Source: Candidatus Omnitrophota bacterium | GTDB taxonomy: Bacteria > Omnitrophota > Omnitrophia > Omnitrophales > Aquincolibacteriaceae | Direction of reading: 5' to 3' | DNA length: 64,000 nt | Assembly: GCA_003140935.1 (NCBI GenBank) | Contig: PLLJ01000038.1 | Coordinates: 6,858-70,857, forward strand | In this document: one piece after another, positions 36,917-53,007 of the stretch | How the letters are laid out: every line of letters starts with the position of its first letter | Position numbering within the stretch: the stretch's first letter is position 1 | Position numbers and translations under genes: made by a program | Notes under the pieces: model-generated | What the model was told of the DNA's origin: nothing | The model's database searches: none | Seen by the model: the letters and a program-made list of their open reading frames with translations, nothing else

Positions 36917-37687
36917 TTACCACGGAAAATAATCGGACTGGATGAGGGCTTTCGTCGCTCGGCCCATGCAAGCTTCGCCGGGTTTGGCCTCCAAACAACC
37001 CTTGAATCCTTCGGCTTTGTCCTGTTCGAAGGCTTGCCGGATAAGAAAATATTGATTTTTATTACCGAGTCGATGTAAATTTTGGCCTGATTTCTTCTCC
37101 ATGTATTTTAGGATCTCATCGCAAAAAGCAATCCCCTTCTCCACATCACCTATGTGATCGTAAAGATAAATGATTTTGCTGGTAATAATCGGCGCATAAT
37201 TCCCATCATATTTAATCGGAGGAAGTAATTTTTTGTATTTTTCTCGAAGATATTTGATGTATTCAAAAACGGGTTGTTCCAAGTGTGTGTTTTGAGCTTT
37301 GCAAAGTGCTTCGAGTTCGAGTTTGTCATTGATATATTCTTCTTTTTTTGGATTTTGATGAATGAACCAATCCATTTCATTTAGGGCATCTCGATATTTT
37401 CCCTGCAACCGATGAACATGCCTTATACGTGCTAAAGGCTGACATTTATCTTCTTCTCTTTTGATAAATTGAGGTGTCAAAGCTTCCTGATATTTATTAA
37501 TAGCATCTTCATACAAACCTTGTTCAACAAGTCGGTCGCCTTTGCGTTCAAGTTGAACTCGGCCGCCAATGACTGCAACCGATTGAAAAGATAGATCTTG
37601 TTTATCAACGCCATTAGCTAAAAGACACGAAAGAAAGAGAGTATTTGCTATCAAAAAAAACAAAAGGATAAACATAAACCGTTTCAT
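36917..37687 (-). CDS. TPR-like repeat lipoprotein (paralog A)
   Basis: MKRFMFILLFFLIANTLFLSC lipobox; helical repeat body (GLYEDAINKYQEAL.., YRDALNEMDWFI..). The C-terminal 60 aa are nearly identical to paralog B (..KKSGQNLHR.GNKNQYFLIRQAFEQD..G.KGC.....G..C.GRATKALIQSDYFPW). Confidence 0.6.
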   Translation of the reverse strand: MKRFMFILLFFLIANTLFLSCLLANGVDKQDLSFQSVAVIGGRVQLERKGDRLVEQGLYEDAINKYQEALTPQFIKREEDKCQPLARIRHVHRLQGKYRDALNEMDWFIHQNPKKEEYINDKLELEALCKAQNTHLEQPVFEYIKYLREKYKKLLPPIKYDGNYAPIITSKIIYLYDHIGDVEKGIAFCDEILKYMEKKSGQNLHRLGNKNQYFLIRQAFEQDKAEGFKGCLEAKPGEACMGRATKALIQSDYFPW

Positions 37688-37705
37688 GGATAAACAACCC
37701 AAATT

Positions 37706-37720: not shown

Positions 37721-37808
37721 TAAGTAACTCTTTGGTTTGTTTCTAGAAAAGCAGAAAGTTTTGTTACTGAATCGCTATTGATAAGCAATTCCGTCACAAA
37801 TGCATTTA

Positions 37809-37892
37809 CCGTTGGCTGATTAAGAGAAGGATCCATCCCGGCGCATATAGCTGGAATGATCCCTCTCTTACTATGATCTTTTTAATATTCAT
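37809..37892 (-). pseudogene. Gene-start remnant (duplicated 5' end of the 36034-36867 membrane-protein gene)
   Basis: The segment 37870-37915 is near-identical to 36845-36890 (ttaaNattcatccccaNaacctNttttttctgttctcatg), including the ATG and RBS, but the frame terminates after 27 codons (MNIKKIIVRGSFQLYAPGWILLLISQR*). Confidence 0.35.
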
Positions 37893-37940
37893 CCCCATAA
37901 CCTTTTTTTCTGTTCTCATGAAAACCGGACGCCATCCGGT

Positions 37941-38678
37941 TTACCACGGGAAATAGTCGGACTGGATGAGAGCTTTCGTTGCTCGACCGACACATCCAGC
38001 CTTCCCCATGCAGCCTTTCTTGCCTTCTTTTTCGTCCTGTTCAAACGCTTGGCGAATAAGAAAATACTGATTTTTATTATCGGGACGATGCAAATTTTGA
38101 CCGGATTTTTTTTCCCAATATGCAAGCGCCTTGTCCATAAAAGTGATGCCGCCCTTATAATTTCCTATTTGGTCATAGCATCGAATAAACGCTGAAGCAA
38201 CGGTTGGGGTTAATCCTGGATTATATTTTGAGGGTGGCAAGATATCTTTGTATTTGCTTTCCATGTACTTGATAAATTCAAGTATTGCCTCGGGAGATTT
38301 CGCGTCTCGTATTTTTATGACTGCTTCCAACTCTGTTTTTTCGTTCTGCCAATTCCATTGCGTAGGGTTCATTTTGACCATAGGGTTCAAGACGTCTAAA
38401 GCTTTTTCATATTCACCTTCCAAGTAATATGTTTCAACAATTAACCCTTTCACTAAAGAATCTTGAAAGGCTTTCATCTTAAGGGCGGGATTATCCGCCT
38501 CTTTGAATTTTGAAAGCGCTTCGTCGTAAAAACCTTGTTTGAGAAATGACTGCCCTTCTCTCTCAAGTTTGTCCTGACGAAAAGCCTTCCATAAGTCATC
38601 ATCCGGAATAGCCTCTGACCAAACGATAGGAACAACATTAAGAAATAAAAAAATAAGCAATACAACTAGTCGCTTCAC
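37941..38678 (-). CDS. TPR-like repeat lipoprotein (paralog B), translationally coupled to the giant gene
   Basis: GTG at 38678 (AGGGAA RBS) gives (M)KRLVVLLIFLFLNVVPIVWS, parallel to paralog A, and overlaps the giant gene stop as GTGA. An alternative TTG at 38699 is possible. TPR-like helical repeats and the shared C-terminal Cys-containing motif are present. Confidence 0.6.
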   Translation of the reverse strand: MKRLVVLLIFLFLNVVPIVWSEAIPDDDLWKAFRQDKLEREGQSFLKQGFYDEALSKFKEADNPALKMKAFQDSLVKGLIVETYYLEGEYEKALDVLNPMVKMNPTQWNWQNEKTELEAVIKIRDAKSPEAILEFIKYMESKYKDILPPSKYNPGLTPTVASAFIRCYDQIGNYKGGITFMDKALAYWEKKSGQNLHRPDNKNQYFLIRQAFEQDEKEGKKGCMGKAGCVGRATKALIQSDYFPW

Positions 38679-41600
38679 GTTTGTTCCCTTGTTTGCCAAC
38701 CCGGCAATCTAATTACCCAGCGATTATTTTCATAGCTAAAACAACCGTCATACTCGAGAGGTGGCCATGTAAGAAAATATGACAGTTCTTCAGTAGAATC
38801 AGCTTTCAACATCAACCGTGTTACAAAATCGCTGACGGTGGTATTCCATCCGGGATCTGAGAGATCATTGCGCTTCATGTAGTAAAGATGTTCGGCCCCC
38901 ACAATTTCAATATTAAAAAGCTGTCGTGTAATTTCTCCATTGGGACCGATGACGCCATCCACAGAAAATCCGAACAAACTATCCCGATATCCAGCAATGC
39001 CTGTCTGGTAAAGAATATCTTTTGTCCCGTAGATATTTACGAATGTCTCGGCTCCACGATTGGCCAGTGTCGGGAAATTCCATGCTGGAACTTTCGGCAA
39101 CACACTGATGATCTCACGCAGCTTGTCTATTGCCAAGCTTGAACCTCTGGATACCAAATCCACAAATTCGTCAGCTAAATGTCCGACATTCAGCACATCG
39201 AGATGCAGCTTCCCTAAAAGGGATTTTAGCATCGCATTCAAAGCGCCCGTAAGCCATCCGAGCACTTTCCCAATACTGCTTTGTGCAAAATCAATGAGAG
39301 AAAGCACCACATTTAATAACTCTGACGATGCTAAACTTAACGTTGCCGCACCAAGACCAACAAGACTTTTGACATTATAAAACTCTGTGGCCAGGCCTTC
39401 AACCAGCGGAAGCAATCCCCCTGAAAATCCCATACCGACGATGGGTCGCACCATGGCTTGTACATTGCTAGCAAGTTGTCGCATTACATCTATAACTAAT
39501 AGCGAATGGAAGCTACCGCTCTGTGATTCAAGAACCCACTTAAGAATATCGATGCCACCGTCGACCACATCATCACCGATAGTTGAGTGATACAGTTCGA
39601 TAGGCAAGGTATCTTCTCGCGGGACAATCGTCTGATTACTTTTTTGGAAAAGATCATATTCCAAATTTGTTATATAAGCCGGCACACCTCCCGAATCGTT
39701 ATCAATCCCGTTAGCCAAAGCATAAAGATCTCCGGAGTCATTCTGCGACGCTCCGTTTCCCGTGTTGACCTGAGTATTAACCTGTTGTAGAAGTCCGTTT
39801 TTGAACACAAAATCCATGGCCATCGGCAAAAACTTGAAAACCATGTTCCAAAAGCTTGGCGAAGAATCAAATTGCTGAGCATCGGGGTGACTACCGTCGA
39901 TAATGATCGTCCCGTCATTGTTCTCTGGTTCAAATTCACCCATGAGTGCTCCATTTTGATAAAGTTTCCCTCTTTTGAGTTGGCCATTACTCACCTCTCC
40001 GGCGAATGCCCAATCGGCTACGACATTACTGATGAAAGTTCCGGACAGAAGGGCCCATTTGCCGGCAGCATCGAAACCAAAAGTGCCGAGTTGCGTAACA
40101 CCATTTTCTTTTTTACCGATAAAATTGCCCGCAAGGTCATAAAAAAGAGATGCTGTGCCGTCGAGTTTCTGTTCCAGGACGCTTTGTCCGTTAAGCGTGG
40201 CGGGGATCTTTGCCGCAGAACCGATGAATCCTCCGATACCCCCGAAACTTAACAATTTCTCTATTGTCTGGCGACTAAAAATGGATGTCACCATCGATTC
40301 CAACGCCCCGGCAAGGCTTTTTTCCTGGATCAAAGAAGCAAAATCGCGTACCCCCTGAAGCGCTGTCTGGATAATGCTGTTCACGGCGTTAAATGGGGTG
40401 AAGACCGCCATTTTGAGAATATCCAGAATGCTGCTGAAGAGACTTCCGCTACCCACAGCGCTCCCTATAGAACTTAAAATATTTCCACTCAGGAGCGAAC
40501 CGAAAATTGGATTACTTGTCGCGCCTCCAAAATCGAATCCTATCGACTTCGCACCGGCGGCAAAACCGTTTTTGATCGCAGCGGAAAGACTGGTGAAATT
40601 GATCGTGTTCGCATGAAATAAACTGTCAAAACCAACACCGACACCGGCTCCAAGTGGCAGAGATATGAGTGAGGTCAGACGCGGGTCGATGCCGAGGGCG
40701 TTTCCCAAGGCCCAGACACCGGAGAGGGTTAATTCTTTCATCAGGTCCGGGGCGACGGTCTTGAAAGCCTCCGGGAGACTTGCCCCGCCTTCCACGGAGC
40801 CGGTGATAATACTCGCAAGAATGCCCAGGTTCGTTGCTATTGGGGGAGGAAGACCGATATGCAGGGCAAGCTCATTAACGCCCGACATGGCAAGATTGGC
40901 CACGGCGGAGTTTAAAAACGTGGTTCCCAATCCAATCTGACCACCGGCAAAGCCAAATACCCCGCCCGTGATGAAACTGCCGATCAGGTTTTTAATCACC
41001 GGGCTTTTGATTCCGATCTTATCCAGAACGATGCCGGTCCCTTTACTCAAGGCGATGCTTAAGACTTGGAAACCGATTACTTGAAGCGGGGCCAACCCGA
41101 GAAATCCACCCGCTGCAGCAAAAAACAAGAAATTCCCAAAATGACCAACCGCTCGCTGAAGCGACTGAAACCCACCATTCAGATCCCCGCTCAAAATGGC
41201 CCCGACAAAGCGAACAGCCTCAAAAAAGAACTGACCGAACGAGACGAGGCTTTTCCCGAGCTCCAACACAAAATCCGTGAGCGACCGGACCACATCGACC
41301 ACAAGATCGACGACATAACGCAATACTGTTTTCACCGCTTCAAAAACAGCCTTCACCACCTGGATCACCGTATCAAAGATCTTCTTCAGGATTCCGAAGA
41401 TGAAACCGAAGAATGCGCCTGTGATCTGCTGCGTCTCCCGGCCCGTCATGATCTTGGCGTTGTTCGAAACTTGCGTCGGCGTTAGCGCGATCCCCTCGCC
41501 CTCTACGGTCACCATCCATATTTTTTCAAATTCCGATCGCGCAAGCGTTTGCGCCTCGCCTGACGGCCCCACGTTTTTTTCGATATAGGTCACCACCTCG

Positions 41601-44600
41601 ATCATGACGGGAGCGCCTTGTTCATCTAGTACCGGATCGCCGTTTTCGTCTATTTGTGCCGCAAGTTCGATTTTCGTGACCACAACATAATGGTTGCCAT
41701 TCATATGAACCAAAACCCCTTTGCCCAGGGCAACTTCGCGCTTGAGTTCATCAAAAGTGACTTTGGCGGGGGTTAAGAGTACGTTCCGGTTCTCGGCAAC
41801 CCGGTTGAGGGCGAAAAGGGAAAGCTCAAGATCCCCGGTCGTGAGCGGATGGATCACGCCTATCATAATGTCAATCAGGATCGCTTCGCGGGCGATATCA
41901 AAAAGCGTCGCGTGAACGTTGCCTTCTTCGATCAACTGCTGGATCGCGAAAAAGGCGGAATGACCGAAATGAAGGTCTCGGGAATCGAGCCAGGCCAGGA
42001 TCGTTTCTATTTCAGGAGCCGTGACGGAGATGACCTCATCCAAAGCCAGACCCAAGGATCGTATCTTGGCAGAACGTTCCGCTTCGTCTGACGCGAGATA
42101 CTGTTCCAGAAAATCCCGGACCGCCGCTTTGATCGCGTTTACTTGCTCCAAACGGGCACTGTATTCTTCACTGCCGCTCAATTCGCCGGCAAGTTTCGGA
42201 ACATTGGCCCGTTCAGGATCGATCCCAAACGCTGATTTGAAATATTCCACAAGGATATCCCAGGAAAATAATCCGGAGATGGCTTTCGCCTCATCGGCCG
42301 TGATCAGAACGGAACCCGGCGCGAGCGGCTGATCGGTGAACACCGCTCCTTGAAGGCTGTTTTCCTTAAGCCAGCGGCTCAAGAACTCGCTTTCAGTCAC
42401 GGTTACTTTTTCTCCGCCAAAGCCGTCATCTTTGGGAACGAAGACATATCTTTCAATATAAATGATATTGCCACCGGCATCCGGAATCGGCACCCCGTTT
42501 GCGTCGAGCCACGGCACGAGCTCGATCTTCAGTTCCTGGGTCCGGTTGCCAAGACTCCGTTGGACAAAAGTCACATTCCCGCCGCTCACGTCTGTCACCA
42601 TCACAAAACCGACATCCTTAAGAAAGGCTAAAACGCCCTCTTGAGACAAACCCGACAACGCTTTCAGCTGATCAAAATTCATCCAAACTCCTGTAAAATT
42701 CAATCCGCGAGCCTCGACGACCTTCTCTAATGAAAAGAGACTCACTTGATCGTCTCCGATCTCGCGCTCAATCCATGCATTGATCTCGTCTTCGGACGGG
42801 TCTCTTCCGAGGATCTTTCGGTAGTGATGGAAAAGAACGGGGCTTAATTCTTGTTTCAGGATCTCGCGGTAGGTGACCAGCTGCTGTTTCTCCAACTCGA
42901 CAAATGCTGTCTTGGCATCTGTTTCTATCTCCATTTTCTTCTGGGCCACGACGGTATCCAGTCCGGCAAGCGCCCCGACCGTTTGTTCGCGGAGGTCCTT
43001 CTCCATCCGATCCAATTCCGAAAGAGGTGCGCTCACATCAACTTGAACGTTCTCGCAAGATTTAAAAAACAGGATTGTATGGCAGACCTTCTGAGAACTG
43101 AGCTGCCGAATTCTCTCACGCTCGGCGTTGATCGCAGCCAAGCCTTCGTTCAATTTGTTCTGGATCGCCTCGATCGCGTAACCGCGCTCAACGGCAAGCG
43201 TCATCAATGCTTCCGTTTCCTGACGCGAAACTTGCGTCTGAGCGGCGATGATCTGTTCCTCTAGTTCTTTCCTTGCATCAATGAGATGGACGGCGATCAG
43301 ATCCCCGGAGGCGTCATACTCGTGATCGATAAGCAAATTCCCGTCCAAGTCCGTAACGTAGTCGATTTGATCATCGACGTAGTGCGCCACGGTGTTATTG
43401 GCGCGGGCGGCCATCAAGAGTTTGCTGTCAGAGGCCCGATAAGCCGCCGCGATGATCGTTTCAGGGTCGAGCACCGCACCCTTCACGATGCCGAGAGTTG
43501 AATTATAGAGCGTCTGCGCTTGGCCTTCATCAAGCTGATCCGGCGACCGGAGAGAGAATTGGGCCGCGGCCTGGGTCTCAAGAGCCGCCTTTTTCAAAAG
43601 CGTCTCATTGATGATCGACGGCACTTCCGGCCTGTCTTTTTGATCCTTAAACGCGATTGCGATCCCGGTCCAATCTATGGCGGGCATATCCCCACTCGAA
43701 AAGACGAGCGGAGCATCCGTGATATCCATCGCAACATTCCCTTTGGGAGAAATCTCGATCGCGTAAAGATATTTTACGGAAAGGTCGGGAAGTGGAATGT
43801 AGACATAGGGAGACCCGACTGCGGATTGGTAAGTTTGCTGACTAAAAAGAGAGTTCGTGAAATTCGTGGCGTAGAAACTCACCGTGAAATTCGAACCCGT
43901 CATTTTAATCCGGAGATAATTTTGATTCGCACCGTGTAACGGGATTGAATTAACGCTTCGCCAATAATCACCGTTGAAATCAAAAAACTCATTAGCAGTC
44001 CCGACCTGCGTCCCTGGAGCTTGAAGAACCCCGTTCACCAGCGGTCTTTCCTTGGACCCGATCCCGGGAAGCGCTGCGTTCAATACCGCTCCGTTAAATA
44101 GAGGCGCGTAAATGATCGCGTTGACCAGGTTGTCTTGAGAATCAACAGTGATCTGACGCGCTCGGGAACCGTCTGCGCGTTCAACCGCGGTCAAAACTCC
44201 GTTCGCGTCATAGATCAATCGGTCGCAACCCGCACCCACCGGTTTCCGGATCTCGGACACTTTCCCGGAAGGGCCGTAGAAGAAAAGAGTGCCATCCAAC
44301 GTTTTTTTGCTGGTAACAACGCCGTTTTGAAGGGTGGTAACGATACCGTCCTTCGTGTAAATGCAGGATTGCGCGTTTCCTGCCGCATCTAAAACGATCT
44401 GCTCAATCTTTCCGCCACCCCCCGTCAAGGTCACCGAACTTAAACTTCCTGAGGAGTATTCCCAGATTTCTCCGCCCGGAGTCTGGAGCCGGAGCAAGCG
44501 GCCGTTTGCATCATAATCGATCTGCGTGGTGTCCGGAAGAACCGCACGGATCAATAGGCCGTTCTTATCATAAATTCTCTGACCGTTTTTGTCCTCAACG

Positions 44601-47600
44601 CCGATTGATTCGATCTCCCCGGAAGCGTTTCTCGTATAAATAAGATCCGTGATCTCGCTCTGGGCGTTGATCAATCTTTCCAAAAATCCATTCTCAAATT
44701 CCTGGATCTCTCCGCCTGGAGAGCTCATATAAAACACTTTCCCGTTCTCGATCAAAGCGACCCTTCCGTCTGGAACTGGCAGATGTACTTCGGCCCGCTG
44801 GATCACCATTTGAGTTATATGATTTTCGTCCACGAAAGATTGAACGATCAGGTTTTTGATCACGGTGCCGTCTGTGGTGATGATCTCGACGGGTTTTTCC
44901 CTGCTGTATTCGATCGTGCCGCGGGAATCTACGATCTTCACCAGTTCCTGAAGCAGGAGATCCTCGGCTTGCCCGTCCGAAAGAACGGAATATTTATAAT
45001 ATTCGCCTTTGGCCGTGATCAGTTCTTTCAAGAACCCGTCAGCGCCGTAACGCCTCGAAATGCCTGTCGCTTCTTCCGTGATCAGGGTATCGTCGCCGGA
45101 GTAAGCGTAAGCAAATGAACCGAAAATGCGGCCCGAACGAAAGGTGACCGCTTTTGCGATCCGACCGGAGCCGTCGTAATCATAGGCCGTCTGAAAACCA
45201 CTATTTATATTGTTGATCGAGATGAGTTTGCCTTTCAAGAAACGACGGATCTGATTTTCCACCGTATCTTCAATCACGGTGATCTCGTCCCCTATTTCGT
45301 TGAACTCGTAGGAGTAAAGATAAATAAGCACCCCGGCTTTTCTGATCTCGCGTATTTTTCCGTACTCGTATTTCACTTCGGTCGTTTCGGGATCGATCTG
45401 ATCGGGATCAAAAATCACCCGATTGACATCACTGGACCCGGCAGCATAAGAGTAATGAACGGCCTTCCCTTCCGGAGTGATGATGGTCTCAATGCGATCG
45501 TTTTGATAGATGGCCTGGGATGCGTTTTGAAAAGACACCGTTGCATTTCCGCCATTTGAGGTATATTCGATCTTAAGCGGAACGTCCCCGGACGGTGTAG
45601 TGACCGCGGGCGCAAATTCAAATCCGGCATCCTCCCAGCCTGACACCGATTTTTTCCATGCTCCGTTTACGTCTACCGAAGGATCAAAAGCAGGATCGCT
45701 GTGAACCGCGGAAAGGAGGTTCATATTCCGGTCATAAACAGCCGAGAGAACAGTGTCCGGCGATAGTCGCGCTTGCAGCACTCCGTTCTTGAGACTGGTT
45801 ATTTGAAATTGGCCATCACTCACTTTAGATGAGTTGAAATTTTCAGCAGCAGTAAAATTTTGAGAGCTGCTTTCCAAGGCCGACTTTTTAGACAGAGCTA
45901 CGCCGATTCTTGCTGGAAAACCGGGAGCCGTCTTTTGATTTACGAAAGATGTAGCTGTATTGACCCACGCCACTGGCTGATAATTTGCACTCGAGCAGGC
46001 AAGTGGAGTGTCCGTGATATCCACCGTGGCATTCGCTTTTGGAGAAATCTCGATTGCGTAAATATAGTTCGTGGAAAGATCGGGAAGCGGGATATAGACG
46101 TAAGGGGACCCCGCCACAGACTGATAAGTTTGCTGGTTGAACAGAGAGGAAATGCTTGAAGAGGAGTAGAATTTGACTGTCACGTTTGAACCGGTCATCT
46201 TGATACGGATATAATTTTGGTTCGAGCCATGCAGCGTGGTCGAATTAACTTCACGCCAATAAAGCCCGTTAAAGTCAAAAAACTTACCGGCAGTCCTGAC
46301 CTGCGGCCCCGGAGTTTGAAGACTCCCGTTTACCAGCGGTCTTTCATTAGATCCTATCCCGGCAAGCGCCGAACTCAACACCGCGCTGTCAAATGAAGGT
46401 GAGTAAATAATCGCGTTAACGAGAGCATCCTGAGAATTGGTGGTAATTTGACGAGCTCGAGAACCGTCCGCCCAAGTGATCTGAGTGATCTGGCCGGAGG
46501 GACTGTAGGTGATCCGATCGCCATTCGTTTTGACGATCTGAGTGACATGTCCTCCTGAGTAATAAAGAGTATTTCCGCTTACATCCCGGATCTGGCTTAT
46601 CGCGCCGCCCGCAATCGTCCAGAGTGAACCGTCCTTGGGATCGTACGTCCCGCTCGCAAGATTGCCGTTCGTATCAAGAACAATGCCGGTCAGCATTTCC
46701 CCTGTGGAAAACTTGATCGAAGATAAAGTTTGGCCTGAATAATTAAATTCTTCATTAGCGTTCGTTTTGACTTTGATCAAATTTCCCGAAACATCATAAG
46801 TAAAAATATCGCCGCTCGGATCGACCGCAGAACTCAAAACCCCCGCCGCCGTATAGGTCCTGGAGCCTAAACCGTCCTGAACGGTGACGGTGGTGACATT
46901 TCCCGATCCATCGAACGTATAACTGAAGTTCATCGCTTCAAAAGTCGGAAGAGTGATCTTCTGGAGAAGACCGGCCGCATATTCTTTCTTTGTTCCGTCT
47001 GTTTCAATAATTTGTTTCAGCTCGCCCGCTTCGATAAGACCTTCCGCGCCGCTGGGATAGACCAATACGGCACTGAGAAGCGAGCCGCCGAGATTGAGAA
47101 CAATATTCTTTATTTCGATCGAGTCCGGCCGGACGATCCGGACCGGTTTCCCATTTTGATAATTGATCGTCCCTTCGAGTTGGCTGACGACTTTTACCAA
47201 TATTTGAAGGAAAGTAACAGCCCCGCTCGGATCTGTAATCTGACTAAACGAGTACTCCTCCCCACGGGGCGTGGTCAGTTTCATGAGTTTCCCAGCCGAG
47301 TCGTAATAACGGATCGATCTCACATCGTTCGTGACGACGGTTCCACTAGTCTGATAGTCATAGACAAACCGCGCAGTCCGAACACCGTCTTGATCGATGA
47401 CGGCCTCAATGATCCTCCCCGAACCGTCATAAGTAAATCCTGTCTTGATCAGCACACCGTTGCGGGTTTCTTCCATACCGTTGACACGACCGTTTGCGAC
47501 GAAAACGTGGTTTCCTTTGTCGTTGATAAATTCCGTTAAATCCCCGATAAAAACGGGGTTGCCGTTTGCATCCGTCGACTCATGGTACTGATAGACTCTT

Positions 47601-50600
47601 CCGTCAGCGGTCAGGGATCGGGCTGGTCTGTCATTTTGGATTTCAAGGATCGTTCCGTCGACCGCCTTGATCTGCGTCAGTTGCTGATTCGCGATAACAA
47701 GCTCTCTTCCGTCCGGTAGTTTCACTAAAGCATTTTGCAGATTTCCTGTCGCGTCATAAGCCAGGTCCCGGTATAAGGTCCCGTCCGGTTTTTGAATCGT
47801 GACGACCTTGTCCTGATCGATTGTAAAGACCGTTCCGTCCGCATCTTTCAATTGAGTCAGCTTACCCTGCTCGCCGTAAACTCTTGTAATGCCGTCGCGG
47901 GTTACTGAAAAGCTATGGAATGCGCCGAACAAATCCTTCTCGGGATCATAAAGGGTTTCTTTGCCGGTAGAGTCCACCACGCGGGTCACCGCACCTGAAA
48001 GATCAAATTGATAAATGGTTCCGTCCGGCATCACTGTTTGAGAAAGCGCTAAATCAGATGTGTAATGAAGCGATGCGGGATAAGAAGAATCGGCAGGTAA
48101 GGGATTAATCGATTCGGAGATCCATTCGCTGCCTACTTGCCGGAGATGATAGGGGTATTCGCCTGCGTCCTTTTTGATCTTGGTCAGACGGCCGGAATCG
48201 AAGGAAAACTCGGTGCCGTCTCCTTTTTTCCAGAAGAGGGCTAAACCGTTACTATCCAGATCAACCTGATCATTTCCTTCTTCAATATGCGTGCTTAATA
48301 AATTGCCTGCACTGTTGACCTTATACTGATAATTGGTAATCTTGCCGTTTTTATCTATTTTTGAATGAATGCGTCCCAAGGAATCATAATAAATATGCGT
48401 GCTATCGGGCCGAAATTCCTCCGAGAGCAGGCCTCCCGAAAGCCGGTAAGCAGTTCCATTCTTGGATTTGATCCATCCCCCTTGGATCAATCCTGAAGCG
48501 TCGAAGCTTGGATTAACGAGCGTAGCGTCGGTTCCGTTCAGATTGAAAATGAGTTCGGTCTCTTTTGCCGGGAAAACGGGGTCGGTAATCGCGTTGAGCA
48601 CCACCAGATAATGCGCAGTTACTTTACCGGAAGCGTTGGGCTCCTCGATCGTAAGAAGATTCGCGCCTTCTTGCAAAGCGTAGATCTCTCTTTTTTCCGT
48701 TCCATCCACGGCATAAACCAATTCATAATTCGAGGTTGTAACGATTTGAGGAGAACGAAACTCAAGAACGGGAAAGGTCGTGTTCGTGGAAGGCGTATAG
48801 GTTACGCTATGGGTCAAGGTCGTTATGTTCCCCGCAAGATCGGTTTCTGTAACGGCAAGTGTATTCTCCCCTTCTGTTAGACCAGTAAAGGTCTTTAATT
48901 TCGACGTACCATCTGCGGTATAGCTGATAGTGAACGTATTCGTATTTGTCAAACTGGGTGTCGCGGGATCGATCACGATCGCGGGGGGAACTGTATCCAG
49001 CATCACCTTGGATAGGAGGACTGTCCTTGTATTCATCGCAGCATCCACTTCCGTGATGGTTAACGCGTCATTGTCACCCTCCGCGAGCGTAAAGATCTGT
49101 TGCTTCACAATCCCATCCGCCGTGTAATCCACCACGAGTGCGGCTTGATTCGTCAGGCTAGGAATCTGGCTCGTTACAACGATCACAGGCGGAACCGTAT
49201 CAAGCACCACCTTCGCCAGCGTGATCGTCCGGATATTTCCCGCAGCATCTGCTTCTGTGATTGTCAGGCCGGTATTATCACCTTCAGCAAGTGTGAAAGT
49301 CTTCTGCTTCGCTACGCCGTCCACCGAATAGTCCACGACCAGCACGGGTTGATTCGTCAAGCTTGGCACAGAACTTGTTATTACGACTGCAGGAGGAACT
49401 GTATCAAGTACTACCTTTGGCAGTGTGATCGTCTGCGAATTGCCTGCAGCATCCGATTCCGTAATCGTTAATCCTGTGTTATCGCCTTCCAAAAACGTAA
49501 AGATTTTCTGCTTTACAACATCATCTGCCGTGTAATTCACCACTAACGTCGGACTTTTTGTTAGGGTCGGGACTGTGCTCGTTACCACAATCACTGGCGC
49601 GATCGTATCCAGTACAACTTTCGCTAACGTGACCTTCTGGATATTTCCCGCAGCGTCCACCTCCGTAATTGCCAGTCCGATATTGTCGCCCTCTGCTAAT
49701 GTGAAAGCTTTCTGCTTTACGACACCATCTGCCGTGTAGTCCACAATCAGGGTCGGATTCTTCGTTAAGTTTGGTACCGTGCTCGTCACTATGATCGCGG
49801 GCGGGATCGTATCAAGCGTAATGGCGCTTGAATAGACGAGGCTGGCATTTCCCGCCTTATCGAAAAATTTTGCGTAAACGGTTTTATGGCCATCGTCAGT
49901 GGATAGTGTAAAAGCCTTTGAGGTCGCATAAGTTTCTGCCGCGGTCCATGTCATGTTATCCACTGAAAAACTCATGGCGCCGATCCCGCTTCCAGAATCG
50001 CTTTCCAAAAGGTTTAAAGTCACATTTTCTGAATTCGTATAAGCAGCGCCCGAATTGATATCGATTGTCCCGGTCGGTTTCACTGTATCCAAAAGCACGG
50101 TCACAGAAACAGGGCTAGACCACTTCCCGAATTTATCCATGAATTTGGCATAAACGGTTTTGTTCCCATCACCGGATGCAAAGGTCCAGGACTTTGAGGC
50201 GCTGTAAGTTTGCGCTGCTGTCCAGGTCACGTTATCAGATGAGAAACTCATTTGCGACAAGCCACTCCCCGCATCCGCGGCCGAAAGGTTCAAGGTCACA
50301 GCCGTCTGTTTGATGTACTGCGCGCCACTATTTATAGTCACGATCCCGGTGGGCGGAAGCGTGTCGAGAACAATTGATTTCGAATAAACAGAACTGGCCT
50401 TGCCGGCCTTGTCATAATATTTCACGTACACCGTCTTACGACCATCGCCGGCAGAGAACGTAAAGGTTTGGGTGGTTGCGTAGGTCTCGGCCGTCGTCCA
50501 ATTCGCGTTGTCCTCGGAAAAACTCATTTTATCGATGCCGCTTCCCGCGTCAGTGGCGGAAAGATTTAAAGTCACGGTTGGAGACGATGTGTAAGTTGCG

Positions 50601-52783
50601 CCGTCATTAATGTTGATTGTGCCGGCTGGTTTTGTGGTATCGAGCTGAATGGATTTCGAATAGACCGCGCTTACATTACCAGCCTTGTTGTAATACTTTA
50701 CGTAAACGGTCTTATTGCCGTCGCCGGATGAAAAGGTCCAGGACTTCGTGGCGTTGTAAGTTTGCGCCGTTGTCCAGGTCACATTGTCTGTTGAAAAGCT
50801 CATCTTACCGATTCCGCTGCCAGAATCACCCGCGGAAAGATTCAAGGTCACGCTAGTTGAAACGGTATAAAGCGCACCGGAATTAATATCGATCGATCCG
50901 GCGGGAACCGTCGTATCCAAGATAATGGATTTGCTGTAGACATTACTCGCATTCCCAACCTTGTCGTAATATTTGACGTATACCGTCTGAGGACCGTCAG
51001 CGACGGGAAGCGCAAAAGTTTGGGTAGTTGCATAGGCCTCGGGAGCAGTCCAGTTCACGTTGTCCGTGGAAAAACTCATTTTGTCAATACCGCTTCCTGC
51101 GTCAGCGGCGGAAAGATTTAATGTCACGTTTGGGGACGCCGTGGTGGCAGCACTTGAATTAATATTGAGGGAACCGGTGGGGATCACCGTGTCCCGCTTG
51201 ATCGTAATGCTTGTAGCCAGGCTGACAAGGCCGATCGAATTCTTTGAGGTAATGCTTAACGTGTTGTTCCCCTCGACCGTGAGGTTCTTCGTCGCGGACC
51301 AGGTTGTGGAGCTGTTGGGCGCCACCATCTCCACGCCATTAATCAGGATTGAGGTGTTAGCTTCTTTAGTGCCGGAGATTGTGATCGAAGTTTCTTTCGT
51401 GACCGCGGGAAAGCCCGTAGTCACAACCGGCGCCGAAGGCACGTCCGTATTAAGCCCGTAGCTGCGGATCACCAGGGTGCCCGTGCGAGTGGTGGAAGTG
51501 GTGTTCGCCTGTGTCACTATAAAATTCATGGATTTGATTTTTGCTTTATCAAGCGTCTTTGCAATCGCGGCAACAGGAATCTTCCAAAACCGCTCCGAAT
51601 TATTCGATATCCCCGTCAAGGTGAACGTATCCTTGATATTGTTGATATCAACCACTTCGAAGCTAAGTGACGTGTCGGGGCCTTTTAATCCGAAAACGAG
51701 GTCCTCTAAAAGTGAAATGTCACACGATTCGATCTCTGGCGTCGTCGCATTATCAAAGGAAACCGTGAATCCTGAGCTATCCGTAGTTCCGGGAACACTG
51801 TAGACAAACGAAAATTTCAGGGTTGAAATGCTGTAGGAAAGCTTGGTGGCAACACTGGAGCCGGTTGTAACGTAAGGATACGGGCTACCAGGCAAAGCAG
51901 TGACATTTGCCGAGGTCAGACCTGATGCGTAAGAAAGAGTCCCTCCCATACGAAAGGTTTCGCGTTCGTCTTCTTGAGCGCGGTTATACTCATCCTGCGC
52001 CTCAACAAACTGATTAAGATCCTTTCTCGCCTCAATCTGATCTTGTTCCGTTTTTGAAGCCTCCAAAGCTTCCTTAAACTTTGAAAGAAACTGATCATAG
52101 CCATAGAGATTACTGTTATTCAAAATCCCTTTGTTGTCATACGCATAGACCCCGGTATGCGTGATCACATATTCCTCGCCCGGAGCTGCAATGGCCTCGT
52201 TAATGTCCTCACCGCTCGGACCTTCGTTGGAATAAATGCTGCTATGCGTATGTGAAATCAGGTTAGCTTTCCCGGCCAGTTCCTTCGCTGCAGGTAGAAC
52301 GCCTATCTCATCCGCGCTCCCCGAAGTGAATAAAACGATTTCGCCGTGAAGCACGATAACGCCAGTTTCAAACGGCAACTCGGCAAGTTTCTTCAAATCT
52401 TCGGCTGAAATTTCTTTCACAATCACAGCACTTGCAAATTCAAGCCTTAAAAGATCAAGCGCTTCTTGAAAATCATAACGTTCATATTCATAGTGAGTGG
52501 TGTCCGGAGAAGCGATCGCCTGGGGAACAGTTTCAGCTATGTCTTGAGTCGCGGATGATAAAGGACCTTGCTTATTCGTTAAAAAATCTATTGTTGTGGA
52601 AGGTTGGACGGTCGGGTTGGAGGAATTGGTTGAAACGGAAGTGATAGCCACGACCGGCTGATTCGGATTTGGCTGATATTCCCGCGGAAGGATCTCACCC
52701 GCCCAAACGATCTGGTTCCAGCCAAAGATCAATGTAATGCAAAACGCAATCAATCGAAGAGAGAATGAAAAGGAACGTTTCAT
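38675..52783 (-). CDS. Giant secreted multidomain protein (~4700 aa): signal peptide, N-terminal domain with HxH..SxxD motif, ~6 Ig-like 92-aa repeats, ~6 68-aa beta repeats, two YD/RHS-repeat blocks each followed by a duplicated ~180-aa module, coiled-coil, C39-like peptidase-fold domain (Ser at Cys position), long Gly/Ala-rich hydrophobic (glycine-zipper-like) region, C-terminal ~500-aa domain
   Basis: Single uninterrupted frame of 14.1 kb. ATG at 52783 with an AGGAAA RBS gives MKRSFSFSLRLIAFCITLIFGWNQIVWA (Sec signal); the ORF-track start at 52966 adds a basic non-signal leader. Repeat families are visible at both protein and DNA level: period ~276 nt from 49810-51430 and ~204 nt from 48790-49810. 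YD-type repeats include ..YDSLGRIHSKIDKNGKIT.Y.Y.., ..YDATGNL.., ..YDGSGRI... The duplicated modules are WADGSRARQIT...DITDTPLACSS and RADGSRARQIT...DITDAPLVFSS. The C39-like segment is ..LHFGHSAFFAIQQL.. and ..VHMNGNHYVVVTKIE. The Gly-rich hydrophobic segment is GAFFGFIFGIL...GGFLGLAPLQVIGF...GSFITGGVFGFAGGQIGLG. Confidence 0.85.
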   Translation of the reverse strand: MKRSFSFSLRLIAFCITLIFGWNQIVWAGEILPREYQPNPNQPVVAITSVSTNSSNPTVQPSTTIDFLTNKQGPLSSATQDIAETVPQAIASPDTTHYEYERYDFQEALDLLRLEFASAVIVKEISAEDLKKLAELPFETGVIVLHGEIVLFTSGSADEIGVLPAAKELAGKANLISHTHSSIYSNEGPSGEDINEAIAAPGEEYVITHTGVYAYDNKGILNNSNLYGYDQFLSKFKEALEASKTEQDQIEARKDLNQFVEAQDEYNRAQEDERETFRMGGTLSYASGLTSANVTALPGSPYPYVTTGSSVATKLSYSISTLKFSFVYSVPGTTDSSGFTVSFDNATTPEIESCDISLLEDLVFGLKGPDTSLSFEVVDINNIKDTFTLTGISNNSERFWKIPVAAIAKTLDKAKIKSMNFIVTQANTTSTTRTGTLVIRSYGLNTDVPSAPVVTTGFPAVTKETSITISGTKEANTSILINGVEMVAPNSSTTWSATKNLTVEGNNTLSITSKNSIGLVSLATSITIKRDTVIPTGSLNINSSAATTASPNVTLNLSAADAGSGIDKMSFSTDNVNWTAPEAYATTQTFALPVADGPQTVYVKYYDKVGNASNVYSKSIILDTTVPAGSIDINSGALYTVSTSVTLNLSAGDSGSGIGKMSFSTDNVTWTTAQTYNATKSWTFSSGDGNKTVYVKYYNKAGNVSAVYSKSIQLDTTKPAGTININDGATYTSSPTVTLNLSATDAGSGIDKMSFSEDNANWTTAETYATTQTFTFSAGDGRKTVYVKYYDKAGKASSVYSKSIVLDTLPPTGIVTINSGAQYIKQTAVTLNLSAADAGSGLSQMSFSSDNVTWTAAQTYSASKSWTFASGDGNKTVYAKFMDKFGKWSSPVSVTVLLDTVKPTGTIDINSGAAYTNSENVTLNLLESDSGSGIGAMSFSVDNMTWTAAETYATSKAFTLSTDDGHKTVYAKFFDKAGNASLVYSSAITLDTIPPAIIVTSTVPNLTKNPTLIVDYTADGVVKQKAFTLAEGDNIGLAITEVDAAGNIQKVTLAKVVLDTIAPVIVVTSTVPTLTKSPTLVVNYTADDVVKQKIFTFLEGDNTGLTITESDAAGNSQTITLPKVVLDTVPPAVVITSSVPSLTNQPVLVVDYSVDGVAKQKTFTLAEGDNTGLTITEADAAGNIRTITLAKVVLDTVPPVIVVTSQIPSLTNQAALVVDYTADGIVKQQIFTLAEGDNDALTITEVDAAMNTRTVLLSKVMLDTVPPAIVIDPATPSLTNTNTFTISYTADGTSKLKTFTGLTEGENTLAVTETDLAGNITTLTHSVTYTPSTNTTFPVLEFRSPQIVTTSNYELVYAVDGTEKREIYALQEGANLLTIEEPNASGKVTAHYLVVLNAITDPVFPAKETELIFNLNGTDATLVNPSFDASGLIQGGWIKSKNGTAYRLSGGLLSEEFRPDSTHIYYDSLGRIHSKIDKNGKITNYQYKVNSAGNLLSTHIEEGNDQVDLDSNGLALFWKKGDGTEFSFDSGRLTKIKKDAGEYPYHLRQVGSEWISESINPLPADSSYPASLHYTSDLALSQTVMPDGTIYQFDLSGAVTRVVDSTGKETLYDPEKDLFGAFHSFSVTRDGITRVYGEQGKLTQLKDADGTVFTIDQDKVVTIQKPDGTLYRDLAYDATGNLQNALVKLPDGRELVIANQQLTQIKAVDGTILEIQNDRPARSLTADGRVYQYHESTDANGNPVFIGDLTEFINDKGNHVFVANGRVNGMEETRNGVLIKTGFTYDGSGRIIEAVIDQDGVRTARFVYDYQTSGTVVTNDVRSIRYYDSAGKLMKLTTPRGEEYSFSQITDPSGAVTFLQILVKVVSQLEGTINYQNGKPVRIVRPDSIEIKNIVLNLGGSLLSAVLVYPSGAEGLIEAGELKQIIETDGTKKEYAAGLLQKITLPTFEAMNFSYTFDGSGNVTTVTVQDGLGSRTYTAAGVLSSAVDPSGDIFTYDVSGNLIKVKTNANEEFNYSGQTLSSIKFSTGEMLTGIVLDTNGNLASGTYDPKDGSLWTIAGGAISQIRDVSGNTLYYSGGHVTQIVKTNGDRITYSPSGQITQITWADGSRARQITTNSQDALVNAIIYSPSFDSAVLSSALAGIGSNERPLVNGSLQTPGPQVRTAGKFFDFNGLYWREVNSTTLHGSNQNYIRIKMTGSNVTVKFYSSSSISSLFNQQTYQSVAGSPYVYIPLPDLSTNYIYAIEISPKANATVDITDTPLACSSANYQPVAWVNTATSFVNQKTAPGFPARIGVALSKKSALESSSQNFTAAENFNSSKVSDGQFQITSLKNGVLQARLSPDTVLSAVYDRNMNLLSAVHSDPAFDPSVDVNGAWKKSVSGWEDAGFEFAPAVTTPSGDVPLKIEYTSNGGNATVSFQNASQAIYQNDRIETIITPEGKAVHYSYAAGSSDVNRVIFDPDQIDPETTEVKYEYGKIREIRKAGVLIYLYSYEFNEIGDEITVIEDTVENQIRRFLKGKLISINNINSGFQTAYDYDGSGRIAKAVTFRSGRIFGSFAYAYSGDDTLITEEATGISRRYGADGFLKELITAKGEYYKYSVLSDGQAEDLLLQELVKIVDSRGTIEYSREKPVEIITTDGTVIKNLIVQSFVDENHITQMVIQRAEVHLPVPDGRVALIENGKVFYMSSPGGEIQEFENGFLERLINAQSEITDLIYTRNASGEIESIGVEDKNGQRIYDKNGLLIRAVLPDTTQIDYDANGRLLRLQTPGGEIWEYSSGSLSSVTLTGGGGKIEQIVLDAAGNAQSCIYTKDGIVTTLQNGVVTSKKTLDGTLFFYGPSGKVSEIRKPVGAGCDRLIYDANGVLTAVERADGSRARQITVDSQDNLVNAIIYAPLFNGAVLNAALPGIGSKERPLVNGVLQAPGTQVGTANEFFDFNGDYWRSVNSIPLHGANQNYLRIKMTGSNFTVSFYATNFTNSLFSQQTYQSAVGSPYVYIPLPDLSVKYLYAIEISPKGNVAMDITDAPLVFSSGDMPAIDWTGIAIAFKDQKDRPEVPSIINETLLKKAALETQAAAQFSLRSPDQLDEGQAQTLYNSTLGIVKGAVLDPETIIAAAYRASDSKLLMAARANNTVAHYVDDQIDYVTDLDGNLLIDHEYDASGDLIAVHLIDARKELEEQIIAAQTQVSRQETEALMTLAVERGYAIEAIQNKLNEGLAAINAERERIRQLSSQKVCHTILFFKSCENVQVDVSAPLSELDRMEKDLREQTVGALAGLDTVVAQKKMEIETDAKTAFVELEKQQLVTYREILKQELSPVLFHHYRKILGRDPSEDEINAWIEREIGDDQVSLFSLEKVVEARGLNFTGVWMNFDQLKALSGLSQEGVLAFLKDVGFVMVTDVSGGNVTFVQRSLGNRTQELKIELVPWLDANGVPIPDAGGNIIYIERYVFVPKDDGFGGEKVTVTESEFLSRWLKENSLQGAVFTDQPLAPGSVLITADEAKAISGLFSWDILVEYFKSAFGIDPERANVPKLAGELSGSEEYSARLEQVNAIKAAVRDFLEQYLASDEAERSAKIRSLGLALDEVISVTAPEIETILAWLDSRDLHFGHSAFFAIQQLIEEGNVHATLFDIAREAILIDIMIGVIHPLTTGDLELSLFALNRVAENRNVLLTPAKVTFDELKREVALGKGVLVHMNGNHYVVVTKIELAAQIDENGDPVLDEQGAPVMIEVVTYIEKNVGPSGEAQTLARSEFEKIWMVTVEGEGIALTPTQVSNNAKIMTGRETQQITGAFFGFIFGILKKIFDTVIQVVKAVFEAVKTVLRYVVDLVVDVVRSLTDFVLELGKSLVSFGQFFFEAVRFVGAILSGDLNGGFQSLQRAVGHFGNFLFFAAAGGFLGLAPLQVIGFQVLSIALSKGTGIVLDKIGIKSPVIKNLIGSFITGGVFGFAGGQIGLGTTFLNSAVANLAMSGVNELALHIGLPPPIATNLGILASIITGSVEGGASLPEAFKTVAPDLMKELTLSGVWALGNALGIDPRLTSLISLPLGAGVGVGFDSLFHANTINFTSLSAAIKNGFAAGAKSIGFDFGGATSNPIFGSLLSGNILSSIGSAVGSGSLFSSILDILKMAVFTPFNAVNSIIQTALQGVRDFASLIQEKSLAGALESMVTSIFSRQTIEKLLSFGGIGGFIGSAAKIPATLNGQSVLEQKLDGTASLFYDLAGNFIGKKENGVTQLGTFGFDAAGKWALLSGTFISNVVADWAFAGEVSNGQLKRGKLYQNGALMGEFEPENNDGTIIIDGSHPDAQQFDSSPSFWNMVFKFLPMAMDFVFKNGLLQQVNTQVNTGNGASQNDSGDLYALANGIDNDSGGVPAYITNLEYDLFQKSNQTIVPREDTLPIELYHSTIGDDVVDGGIDILKWVLESQSGSFHSLLVIDVMRQLASNVQAMVRPIVGMGFSGGLLPLVEGLATEFYNVKSLVGLGAATLSLASSELLNVVLSLIDFAQSSIGKVLGWLTGALNAMLKSLLGKLHLDVLNVGHLADEFVDLVSRGSSLAIDKLREIISVLPKVPAWNFPTLANRGAETFVNIYGTKDILYQTGIAGYRDSLFGFSVDGVIGPNGEITRQLFNIEIVGAEHLYYMKRNDLSDPGWNTTVSDFVTRLMLKADSTEELSYFLTWPPLEYDGCFSYENNRWVIRLPGWQTREQT
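43640..44183 (-). repeat. Internal duplicated module copy 2 of the giant gene
   Basis: See copy 1. Each copy follows a YD-repeat block, which suggests an ancestral duplication of a [YD block + module] unit. Confidence 0.7.
45965..46474 (-). repeat. Internal duplicated module copy 1 of the giant gene (paralogous to 43640-44183)
   Basis: Protein WADGSRARQITTNSQDALVNAIIYSPSFDSAVLSSALAGIGSNERPLVNG...YIRIKMTGSNVTVKFY...SPYVYIPLPDLSTNYIYAIEISPK.. versus copy 2 RADGSRARQITVDSQDNLVNAIIYAPLFNGAVLNAALPGIGSKERPLVNG...; DNA similarity is also obvious (e.g. ggagaaatctcgat(c/t)gcgtaaa(g/t)ata). Confidence 0.7.
48790..49810 (-). repeat. Tandem array of ~5-6 short beta-domain repeats (period ~204 nt / 68 aa) inside the giant gene
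   Basis: The markers ctgtatccag / ccgtatcaag / ctgtatcaag / atcgtatcc / atcgtatcaag recur at ~48993, 49197, 49401, 49614, 49808. Protein consensus: VVLDT(V/I)PP.IV(V/I)TS.VP.LT..P.LVVDYTADGV.KQK.FTLAEGDN.GLTITE.DAAGN..T(I/V)TL.K. Confidence 0.7.
49810..51430 (-). repeat. Tandem array of ~6 Ig-like domain repeats (period ~276 nt / 92 aa) inside the giant gene
   Basis: Recurrent DNA motifs (e.g. ..gg(a/t)atcgag.., ..tgaaagaaac..) and the protein consensus LNLSA.D.GSGI.KMSFS.DN..WT....Y...K..T.S.GDG.KTVY.K..DKAGN.S.VYS.SI.LDT..P.G.I.IN.GA.YT. Confidence 0.7.
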
Positions 52784-52824
52784 GACAGATTTCCTATGTT
52801 TCGTTCCACAGATGTTTTTTTCTT

Positions 52825-53007
52825 TCAAGATTTGTTTTTTATTTCTTCCAAAAATCCGACGACGCTTTCGCGGACAACATCGGAACGGGTCCGGTGTTCT
52901 TCTTCGGCCCGGTCCCAAAGCTTTTGGTAATGCGCGGGATCGAGCGTGAAGGTGATCTGGATCCACGTGCCTTCCGTCGCCTGGGGTGCTACCTGAATGT
53001 TCTGCAT
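52825..53007 (-). CDS. Ribbon-helix-helix (CopG/Arc/MetJ-like) DNA-binding protein, immediately upstream of the giant gene
   Basis: ATG at 53007 preceded by a strong AAAGGAGGAAGCC RBS; 60 aa with ..WIQITFTLDPAHYQKLWDRAEEEHRTRSDVVRESVVGFL.., a beta-strand then two helices as in RHH repressors. The stop lies 42 nt upstream of the giant gene ATG. Confidence 0.55.
   Translation of the reverse strand: MQNIQVAPQATEGTWIQITFTLDPAHYQKLWDRAEEEHRTRSDVVRESVVGFLEEIKNKS

Follow-up and report, generated by a model that had tools for sequence, protein, structure and literature searches.

We analysed a stretch of 64,000 nucleotides from a Candidatus Omnitrophota bacterium (assembly GCA_003140935.1, contig PLLJ01000038.1, positions 6,858 to 70,857), called the window in what follows, which contains a giant gene encoding a protein of 4702 amino acids and, directly downstream of it, two genes for tetratricopeptide repeat (TPR) proteins. 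The open reading frame (ORF) of the giant gene runs without interruption on the minus strand over 38675..52966 when counted from its first GTG in the ORF list of the window. Its probable start is the ATG at 52783, because AGGAAA lies 7-12 nucleotides upstream of this codon and the export signal of the protein begins there. The elements on which the argument turns are given here, with residue numbers referring to the giant protein.

38675..52783, minus strand: giant gene, 4702 codons plus stop, from the ORF list and its translation; the maximal ORF reaches the GTG at 52966.
41414..42253, minus strand: linker helices and complete C39-like domain (residues 3511-3790), with the proposed triad S3609 / H3698 / E3735.
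40136..41413, minus strand: hydrophobic helical region rich in Gly, Ala and Ser, with an LPPP motif (residues 3791-4216), recognised by composition and GxxxG enrichment.
39764..40135, minus strand: beta-rich pre-toxin subdomain (residues 4217-4340), with strands in the AlphaFold2 (AF2) model and a breakpoint after '...GKWALLSG' at residue ~4247.
38678..39763, minus strand: predicted C-terminal alpha/beta-hydrolase domain with a helical insert (residues 4341-4702), with S4454 (GMGFSGG), D4589 (YGTKD) and H4632 (GAEH).
37941..38678, minus strand: TPR1, a TPR protein of 245 residues with a signal peptide, whose GTG overlaps the TGA of the giant gene (ACGTGA); proposed cognate immunity gene.
36917..37687, minus strand: TPR2, a paralogue of TPR1 of 256 residues with a signal peptide; proposed second (orphan) immunity gene.

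The giant protein is a member of a large family. An exhaustive profile search with its core, made of the C39-like domain and the hydrophobic region, found 540 representatives of clusters built at 50% identity, of which 207 reach E<=1e-30. The best 150 relatives, to which the fractions given below refer, are mostly of 3000-5000 residues, with the core lying a median of 457 residues from the C-terminus. An earlier word-indexed search had returned just three relatives of the C-terminal third, and the impression of a rare protein that it left was corrected by the profile search. An account of this DNA made from its letters alone (the sequence-only reading) had called the size extraordinary, which it is not in its own lineage, where the protein represents one of at least 540 such clusters. 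The C39-like domain is shared by 146 of the best 150 relatives, the helical region preceding it by 136, the hydrophobic region by 131 and the YD region by 103; Big_13 repeats are found in 30, OmpL47-type repeats in 24, the N-terminal domain in 21 and a duplicated module in 1. Genomic contexts were compared in 20 related loci from a species-level genome collection, scanned with a four-sequence alignment. The named genomes among these loci are all metagenome-assembled genomes (MAGs) of Omnitrophota, as the sequence-only reading had guessed for this DNA, except for L022, a weak 73-residue match in a Planctomycetia MAG.

Four lines of evidence argue with high confidence that the tip of the protein travels with the first downstream gene, both in inheritance and in exchange, independently of the body. 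First, the downstream gene co-varies with the tip. A small ORF begins at or within ~65 nucleotides of the giant-gene stop in 19 of the 19 loci examined, and a homologous family of TPR proteins with signal peptides lies directly downstream in 11/11 loci of the hydrolase type versus 0/8 loci with other tips, which have unrelated small proteins in its place. Second, the close relative in locus L006 shows 89% identity in the core and 80-97% over residues 1400-4246, which falls to 28-29% from residue ~4300, right after the motif ...FGFDxAGKWALLxG (residue ~4247); its downstream protein is 25% identical. Third, there is a body-less orphan, in which a hydrolase fragment of 331 codons, devoid of the first strand and of the giant body, shares 65% identity with residues 4371-4701, a much closer match than the tip of L006 offers, and is followed by an overlapping TPR gene with 50% identity to TPR1. 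This cassette adjoins grpE, dnaJ and a PhdYeFM/YoeB toxin-antitoxin pair, and was recovered in two assemblies (L026/L027). Fourth, the GC content drops from ~50% to 43% (0.43-0.45 over 36001-40000, where the hydrolase domain and both TPR genes lie, versus ~0.50 in the remainder of the giant gene). The family thus shows what polymorphic toxins are recognised by: a constant body with alternative tips, a downstream gene that changes with the tip, and an orphan cassette of tip plus partner.

The orphan cassette amounts to one case; two further candidates (L028/L029) sit at contig ends and are not informative. The PhdYeFM/YoeB pair occupies 7669-8258 in L026, directly beside the hydrolase and TPR genes, and in L028 transposase genes of the IS200/IS605 type come right after the hydrolase-TPR pair; these surroundings suggest a mobile or accessory context. 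The sequence-only reading had proposed that both the C-terminal domain and a duplicated 'WADGSRARQIT' module be sought as separate toxin or immunity cassettes. This is what the orphan shows for the former, in two assemblies. The latter occurs in 1/150 relatives, a search for it elsewhere gave no homologues, and it is no such cassette.

Tips are diverse across the family. Among 132 distal tails, 77 (58%) are of the hydrolase type and the other 55 fall into 32 clusters; an iterative search matched the C-terminal profile to 97 of 118 tails, about 30 of them solely over the first ~125 residues, and left 21 without detectable similarity. Hydrolase presence requires 26 changes on a quick neighbour-joining tree of the very divergent core sequences versus 27.8 for shuffled labels, so that tip type appears unlinked to core relatedness. 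The similarity of hydrolases tracks that of their TPR partners (Spearman 0.75) and does not track that of the hydrophobic region of the body (0.23), across 55 locus pairs that are not independent of each other. Loci L011 and L012 both come from one MAG, CAYMER01 (binchicken_co18_506), and have different downstream genes, with a non-hydrolase tip in one member and a hydrolase tip in the other; a single genome can therefore be equipped with several variants.

Judged by this co-variation and co-evolution with the hydrolase domain, both of the downstream TPR genes belong to the system. The sequence-only reading had the architecture of the giant protein right and overlooked this pair, whose relevance emerges from the 11/11 versus 0/8 distribution and the correlation of 0.75. 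TPR1 has a ribosome-binding site, AAGGGA, ahead of its GTG and scores 28.4 bits with TPR_2 (cut-off 27); TPR2 is below this threshold and shares 55% identity with the proteins encoded downstream in L003-L005. Signal-like N-terminal segments were seen by eye in all 12 TPR homologues. Searches of Pfam gave no family-level assignment for the TPR partner, the hydrolase or the pre-toxin module. Downstream of TPR2 a gene at 36034-36873 (minus strand) encodes a predicted membrane protein of 277-279 residues, which has no Pfam match and is not conserved in the related loci.

The tip itself, which is the C-terminal region of 486 residues (4217-4702), is predicted with high confidence to end in an alpha/beta hydrolase whose Ser-Asp-His triad is intact. 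Six positions are invariant in an alignment of 23 tails, among them Ser4454, Asp4589 and His4632, and the structure modelled from this alignment (predicted local distance difference test, pLDDT, 73.6; predicted template-modelling score, pTM, 0.66) contains a small beta subdomain, a nucleophile elbow of the strand-Ser-helix kind and a helical insert. The elbow G-F-S4454-G-G comes after model strand 232-237, and the Ser-Asp-His order is kept. None of the 23 members matches a Pfam family or, by profile, a PDB entry, and sequence and profile searches of the PDB with the C-terminal 1402 residues, the core profile and the hydrolase profile gave nothing meaningful; the hydrolase has a known fold and forms a new family by sequence. 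The toxin-like part is neither the YD region nor the glycine zipper, where the sequence-only reading had looked for it, and corresponds to the C-terminal domain that it had left unassigned. A lipid is the most likely guess for the substrate.

Upstream of the hydrophobic region, the complete C39-like domain spans residues ~3590-3790. The giant protein itself scores 17.9-21.1 bits with PF03412, under the cut-off of 22, yet 27 of 30 relatives match this model (best 5.7e-11), and the family profile matches the peptidase domain of PCAT1 (2.2e-8), LahT (4e-5) and ComA (1.6e-3) with the catalytic His aligned. These matches confirm the C39 fold, and with it the earlier suggestion of a Cys-less C39 fold carrying Ser at the Cys position. 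S3609 is near-invariant, lies within the motif HFG(H/Q)SAF at the N-terminal end of the first core helix and occupies the nucleophile position by alignment, not by residue-level superposition; H3698 is invariant and aligned with the His of PCAT1, and the Asp column holds an invariant Glu, E3735. One divergent relative (the last sequence of alignment A4, motif INFARCSVV) has Cys in the Ser column, which is consistent with a switch of nucleophile from Cys to Ser within the family.

Such a domain could also be a pseudo-protease that cleaves nothing, docks or chaperones the adjacent hydrophobic region or an export partner and leaves the tip attached, an explanation that we regard as possible if somewhat unlikely. 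The C39-like domain of HlyB, which lacks the Cys, offers a model for a docking or chaperoning role. The catalytic Cys is missing from nearly all members of our family too, and the second copy of the domain (residues 3343-3510) is plainly degenerate, having neither the nucleophile helix nor the catalytic His. It is harder to see, under this explanation, why Ser, His and Glu should be near-invariant to invariant at the three catalytic positions of a very divergent family, why one member should have Cys precisely in the Ser column and why the His should align with the catalytic one of PCAT1. The conserved Ser-His-Glu pattern rather suggests a retained active site with a switched nucleophile.

The hydrophobic region that follows is the best conserved part of the protein (90-97% identical to L006), and its density of GxxxG motifs over residues 3790-4216 is 8.5 times that of the rest, in agreement with the glycine-rich hydrophobic tract described from the letters alone. 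It is predicted to be all-helical at low confidence, and not to be the soluble beta-helix that had been named as the alternative to a membrane-active tract. Family-averaged hydropathy reveals a conserved transmembrane-like stretch right after the C39 domain (residues 3784-3850; mean Kyte-Doolittle value, KD, 2.05; 3% charged), and one or two strongly hydrophobic segments occur there in 63 of 87 relatives. A classical transmembrane anchor in the giant protein itself was considered and is weakened, since no window has a favourable insertion energy on the scale used here. Because its hydrophobicity is marginal, its glycine-zipper motifs are enriched and its conservation is the highest in the protein, the region may fit a conditionally inserting translocation or pore region better than a simple anchor.

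The remainder of the giant protein, from its N-terminus to the C39-like domain, is made of the following elements.

52700..52783, minus strand: signal-peptide-like N-terminus (residues 1-28), MKRSFSFSLRLIAFCITLIFGWNQIVWA then GE, read by eye; hydrophobic segment with a KD19 value of 1.66.
51314..52699, minus strand: N-terminal domain (residues 29-490) with a JAMM/JAB-like motif.
49784..51313, minus strand: ~5.5 tandem OmpL47-type Ig-like barrels of 92 residues (residues 491-1000), from NCBIfam NF047446 (9.9e-22, 5 stretches) and self-BLAST.
48584..49783, minus strand: residues 1001-1400, within ~6 tandem Big_13 Ig-like repeats of 68 residues (residues ~975-1400), from PF19077 (1.9e-8) and self-BLAST.
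46514..48583, minus strand: YD/RHS block 1 (residues 1401-2090), PF05593 at 66.8 bits.
45854..46513, minus strand: duplicated module, copy 1 ('WADGSRARQIT...', residues 2091-2310), 52-72% identical to copy 2.
45194..45853, minus strand: conserved linker region (residues 2311-2530), in 67/150 relatives, without a Pfam match.
44174..45193, minus strand: YD/RHS block 2 (residues 2531-2870), PF05593 at 33.1 bits, 30-38% identical to block 1.
43559..44173, minus strand: duplicated module, copy 2 (residues 2871-3075), from self-BLAST.
42758..43558, minus strand: helical or coiled-coil region (residues 3076-3342), with the Cys pair C3234, C3243 and an invariant YRxILGRDPSxxE.
42254..42757, minus strand: degenerate half-copy of the C39-like domain (residues 3343-3510), 30% identical to residues 3650-3791, in 22/150 relatives.

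The signal peptide, the Ig-like repeats, the YD/RHS repeats, the duplication of a unit of YD block plus module and the putative coiled coil had all been read from the letters, and most of this was borne out by Pfam, NCBIfam and self-comparison. The signal peptide is recognisable by eye, the Ig-like repeats are of the OmpL47 and Big_13 types, and the whole protein matches the YD/RHS models PF05593 (8e-23) and TIGR01643 (3.6e-9), with the matches lying in two blocks. Self-BLAST aligns residues 2050-2305 with 2811-3070 at the 52-72% identity of the module copies. With no Pfam match and its near absence from relatives, the module is by sequence comparison a lineage-specific insertion. The coiled coil has its counterpart in four stretches of 38-40 residues free of Pro and Gly within residues 3108-3314, and the invariant residues of the helical region are R3322, G3326, R3327, D3328 and E3333. 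The number of OmpL47-type repeats differs from that of L006, which has no equivalent of residues ~600-1000, so gains or losses of repeats change the length of the stalk. In the N-terminal domain, a motif resembling that of JAMM/JAB metalloproteases, SGSxDEIG ... SHTH(P/S)-x8-PSGxD, lies at residues ~150-195 (52199-52336, minus strand); the giant protein reads DEIG ... SHTHS-x8-PSGED, and 19 of the 21 relatives having this domain keep the motif. The domain matches DUF4329 and Prok-JAB in Pfam weakly (E~0.05-0.1) and gave no match in a PDB profile search. Searched as separate regions, the N-terminal domain above threshold, the duplicated module, the linker, the helical region and the hydrophobic region are all without a Pfam family.

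We infer, with moderate confidence, that the giant gene and the two TPR genes form a polymorphic toxin-immunity system, because the signatures of the locus match the defining ones set out by Zhang et al. (2012; PMC3482391). That study described Sec-dependent RHS polymorphic toxins, releasing peptidases, the C39-related papain fold Tox-PLC39 and lipase-like Tox-ABhydrolase tips, and immunity proteins of the TPR superfamily (Sel1), in small arrays, have been reported as well (PMC7108748). The general idea of an adhesin-toxin hybrid, raised in the sequence-only reading, fits the evidence. The system might work as follows. The giant protein would exit the cytoplasm via Sec, and its Ig-like repeats and YD region would reach towards or bind a neighbouring cell, be it a competitor, prey or host. 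The marginally hydrophobic glycine-zipper helices would insert in the envelope of this target and present the tip or pass it across, and the adjacent C39-fold domain, with Ser for the catalytic Cys, His kept and Glu for Asp, may free it. The hydrolase would then attack an ester substrate of the envelope, most likely a membrane lipid, while in the producer the periplasmic TPR proteins would bind and block it, TPR1 as the cognate partner and TPR2 as extra immunity against the variants of relatives. Since the system seems to include an immunity gene, its target would be a bacterial envelope, which may belong to competitors or to prey or host cells; the data do not tell which. Our confidence in the lipid substrate, the autoprocessing and the membrane translocation is lower than in the toxin and immunity functions.

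A number of observations count against a toxin-immunity system acting in this way. First, the hydrolase dominates among the tips, and could therefore be an ancestral functional domain and not one toxin among many. Second, the alternative tips and partners (five tips and their partners, searched against Pfam) match no known toxin or immunity family, and in the non-hydrolase locus L023 the downstream gene is TPR-like as well, though not detectably homologous. Third, the divergence of the sequences in the core tree and the dependence among locus pairs temper the two statistics on tip exchange. Fourth, the neighbours scanned include no secretion-system gene that could serve to carry a 4700-residue protein across the outer membrane. 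Fifth, the substrate is not readable from the fold, as thioesterases and esterases score as high as lipases. Finally, no window of the giant protein reaches the hydrophobicity of a constitutive transmembrane segment (best +2.9 kcal/mol, on the insertion scale used here), and the helical model of the hydrophobic region has a pLDDT of only ~30.

A more specific idea, which we put forward tentatively and think rather unlikely, is that the helical region, the Ser-His-Glu C39 domain, the ~430 residues of glycine-zipper helices and the small beta domain, which together make up the best conserved part of the protein, form a self-contained and undescribed toxin-delivery device, in which an autoprocessing serine variant of the papain fold may be coupled to a conditionally inserting translocation region. 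Such a device would let ultra-small Omnitrophota push lipase-like and ~30 other enzymes into the envelopes of prey or hosts without a dedicated secretion machine, and would be a functional analogue, evolved independently, of the protease-plus-delivery core of large clostridial toxins.

The same architecture could instead belong to a surface fibre anchored in the producer, with the hydrophobic region in its own membrane, the Ig-like and YD parts serving as an adhesin, the hydrolase acting on its own envelope or on scavenged substrates and the TPR proteins being assembly factors or chaperones. The strongly hydrophobic segments that most relatives have directly after the C39 domain would be natural anchors, C39-like domains followed by C-terminal transmembrane anchors have been described in Omnitrophota giants (bioRxiv 10.1101/2023.11.21.568195), TPR proteins are often chaperones or scaffolds, and the hydrolase is the majority tip. 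We nevertheless find this quite unlikely. An abrupt drop from 90% to 28% identity at a fixed junction between close relatives is not what one expects of a housekeeping enzyme with its chaperone, nor are 32 alternative clusters of tips, each with a different partner, a truncated body-less orphan copy or a GC discontinuity; moreover, in the giant protein itself no segment is predicted to insert constitutively.

The analogy with Rhs and Tc toxins drawn in the sequence-only reading found no support. A canonical cocoon, in which a closed YD shell surrounds a C-terminal toxin freed by the Rhs aspartyl autoprotease, would account for the significant RHS repeats in two blocks, the retention of YD regions in two thirds of the relatives and a faint TEN_YD-shell match in the contig table, and partial shell formation by the YD region is possible. 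It is very improbable as an account of this protein, in whose 4702 residues there is no DPxGL motif (DPxG[LIVM]) and for which OmpL47 and YD_repeat were the only models matched in the NCBIfam scan, with no Rhs-associated core. Some 1150 residues separate the last YD block and duplicated module (residue ~3075) from the variable tip, a distance taken up by the helical region, 1.5 C39 domains, 430 residues of hydrophobic helices and the beta subdomain, and the recombination junction lies at residue ~4247 and not at the end of the YD region.

As for the artefact of an assembly chimera or several genes read through, the unusual length of the gene is the sole point in favour, and this reading has next to no probability because the identical product of 4702 residues is called on 8 contigs from independent ENA and JGI assemblies (the longest of 655 kb), full-length collinear homologues of 4.3-4.6 thousand residues exist in other MAGs, and the identity to L006 over residues 1400-4246 extends across every domain junction of the body. 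These data also exclude a hidden frameshift, and by our own arithmetic the chance of 4700 stop-free codons at ~50% GC is ~e^-225. The giant ORF is real, and the single frame of ~4700 codons seen by the sequence-only reading stands.

The rest of the window is ordinary chromosome, with trigger factor, five tRNAs, CstA and a radical-SAM cluster. Upstream of the giant gene lies a gene (53234-54556, minus strand) for an exported protein of 440 residues with an internal duplication, made of two similar halves of ~170 residues, and no Pfam match; it is not conserved in this position in other loci, between which we found no conserved upstream partner genes. At 12581-21873 (minus strand), at least five tandem paralogous radical-SAM genes, four of them scoring a B12-binding domain, stand beside a family-2 glycosyltransferase in a run that resembles a modification or biosynthesis cluster. 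A DUF488 gene flanked by two hemerythrin-domain genes occupies 56244-58357 (minus strand), and a divergent polysaccharide deacetylase gene comes next (58651-59553). Two further candidates for the system were rejected. A defence system known to PADLOC was set aside, as no model matched the giant protein or its neighbours. So was a Tle effector of a type VI secretion system (T6SS), there being no T6SS genes among the 20 neighbouring ORFs of the window that were scanned and no match to a Tle family in Pfam.

Omnitrophota are uncultivated, very small bacteria thought to be predators or parasites. What their giant genes do has been described as poorly understood (PMC10066038), and the open-access literature on these genes mentions neither this family nor YD toxins, tips of the hydrolase kind, immunity genes or polymorphism of the tip. 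The locus gives a large class of them a concrete and testable function, with defined handles in the predicted catalytic residues S4454, D4589 and H4632, in S3609 and H3698, in the recombination junction and in the candidate immunity proteins. If confirmed, it would extend polymorphic toxin warfare to Omnitrophota, add a new pre-toxin and delivery module and a new family of hydrolase toxins with TPR immunity, and open ~30 further families of tips and partners to toxin discovery.

Several known systems resemble the one proposed here, each in part. The closest in layout are the Sec-dependent RHS/YD toxins of the WapA type, which share with it a signal peptide, YD repeats, an internal domain of peptidase fold, a variable enzymatic tip at the C-terminus, a cognate gene directly downstream and orphan cassettes of tip and partner; a lipase-like alpha/beta-hydrolase tip is a listed toxin class (PMC3482391). 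The giant protein differs from them in lacking the Rhs-associated core and the DPxGL autoprotease and in the distance between YD region and tip, its family has its junction after another conserved motif (…FG.D..GKW.LL.G), and its hydrolase, pre-toxin module and TPR partner match no Pfam family. With CdiA/CdiI it has in common a giant filamentous constant region, a sharp breakpoint of identity that coincides with a conserved pre-toxin motif, a polymorphic tip whose immunity gene co-evolves with it, and truncated orphan pairs of tip and immunity gene. In contrast to CdiA/CdiI, which belong to a different phylum, it has no two-partner secretion domain, filamentous haemagglutinin repeats, CdiB partner or VENN motif, and its constant region is made of Ig-like and YD repeats.

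Large clostridial and MARTX toxins combine binding repeats, internal autoprocessing by a papain-like or cysteine protease, a hydrophobic translocation region and effectors in one polypeptide, and MARTX toxins include an alpha/beta-hydrolase effector. We detected no sequence or fold relationship with them; moreover, the effector of the giant protein is C-terminal to the hydrophobic region, its protease fold is a C39 with Ser, and an immunity gene is present. PCAT, ComA, LahT and the C39-like domain of HlyB are linked to our domain by the profile match and the aligned His, and in peptidase-containing ABC transporters (PCATs), as in the giant protein, the C39 domain is directly followed by hydrophobic helices. 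Our C39 domain is not fused to an ABC transporter, none being found among the neighbours scanned in the window; it has no double-glycine leader context, carries Ser for Cys and Glu for Asp, and is embedded ~1100 residues from the C-terminus of a secreted giant protein. The Tle/Tli pairs of T6SS resemble the system in having an alpha/beta-hydrolase toxin with a GxSxG-type nucleophile and an immunity protein with a signal peptide, as do the Sel1/TPR immunity proteins of T6SS (PMC7108748) in being helical-repeat proteins in small arrays. They differ from it in that our effector is the tip of a Sec substrate of 4702 residues with no T6SS genes among the neighbours scanned. Lastly, the Archaeovorin and Dockerin types of Omnitrophota giants (bioRxiv 10.1101/2023.11.21.568195, 10.64898/2026.06.07.730766; PMC10066038) come from the same phylum, are likewise very long, mostly unannotated and probably surface-exposed, and show recurrent C39-like domains and C-terminal hydrophobic segments, whereas they reach at least 10-30 thousand residues and carry SecA-like, dockerin or metabolic domains. 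The general kind of system, a polymorphic toxin with its immunity, is thus known, and what is new is the proposed delivery module, the family of hydrolase tips with TPR partners and the large Omnitrophota-specific family that bears them.

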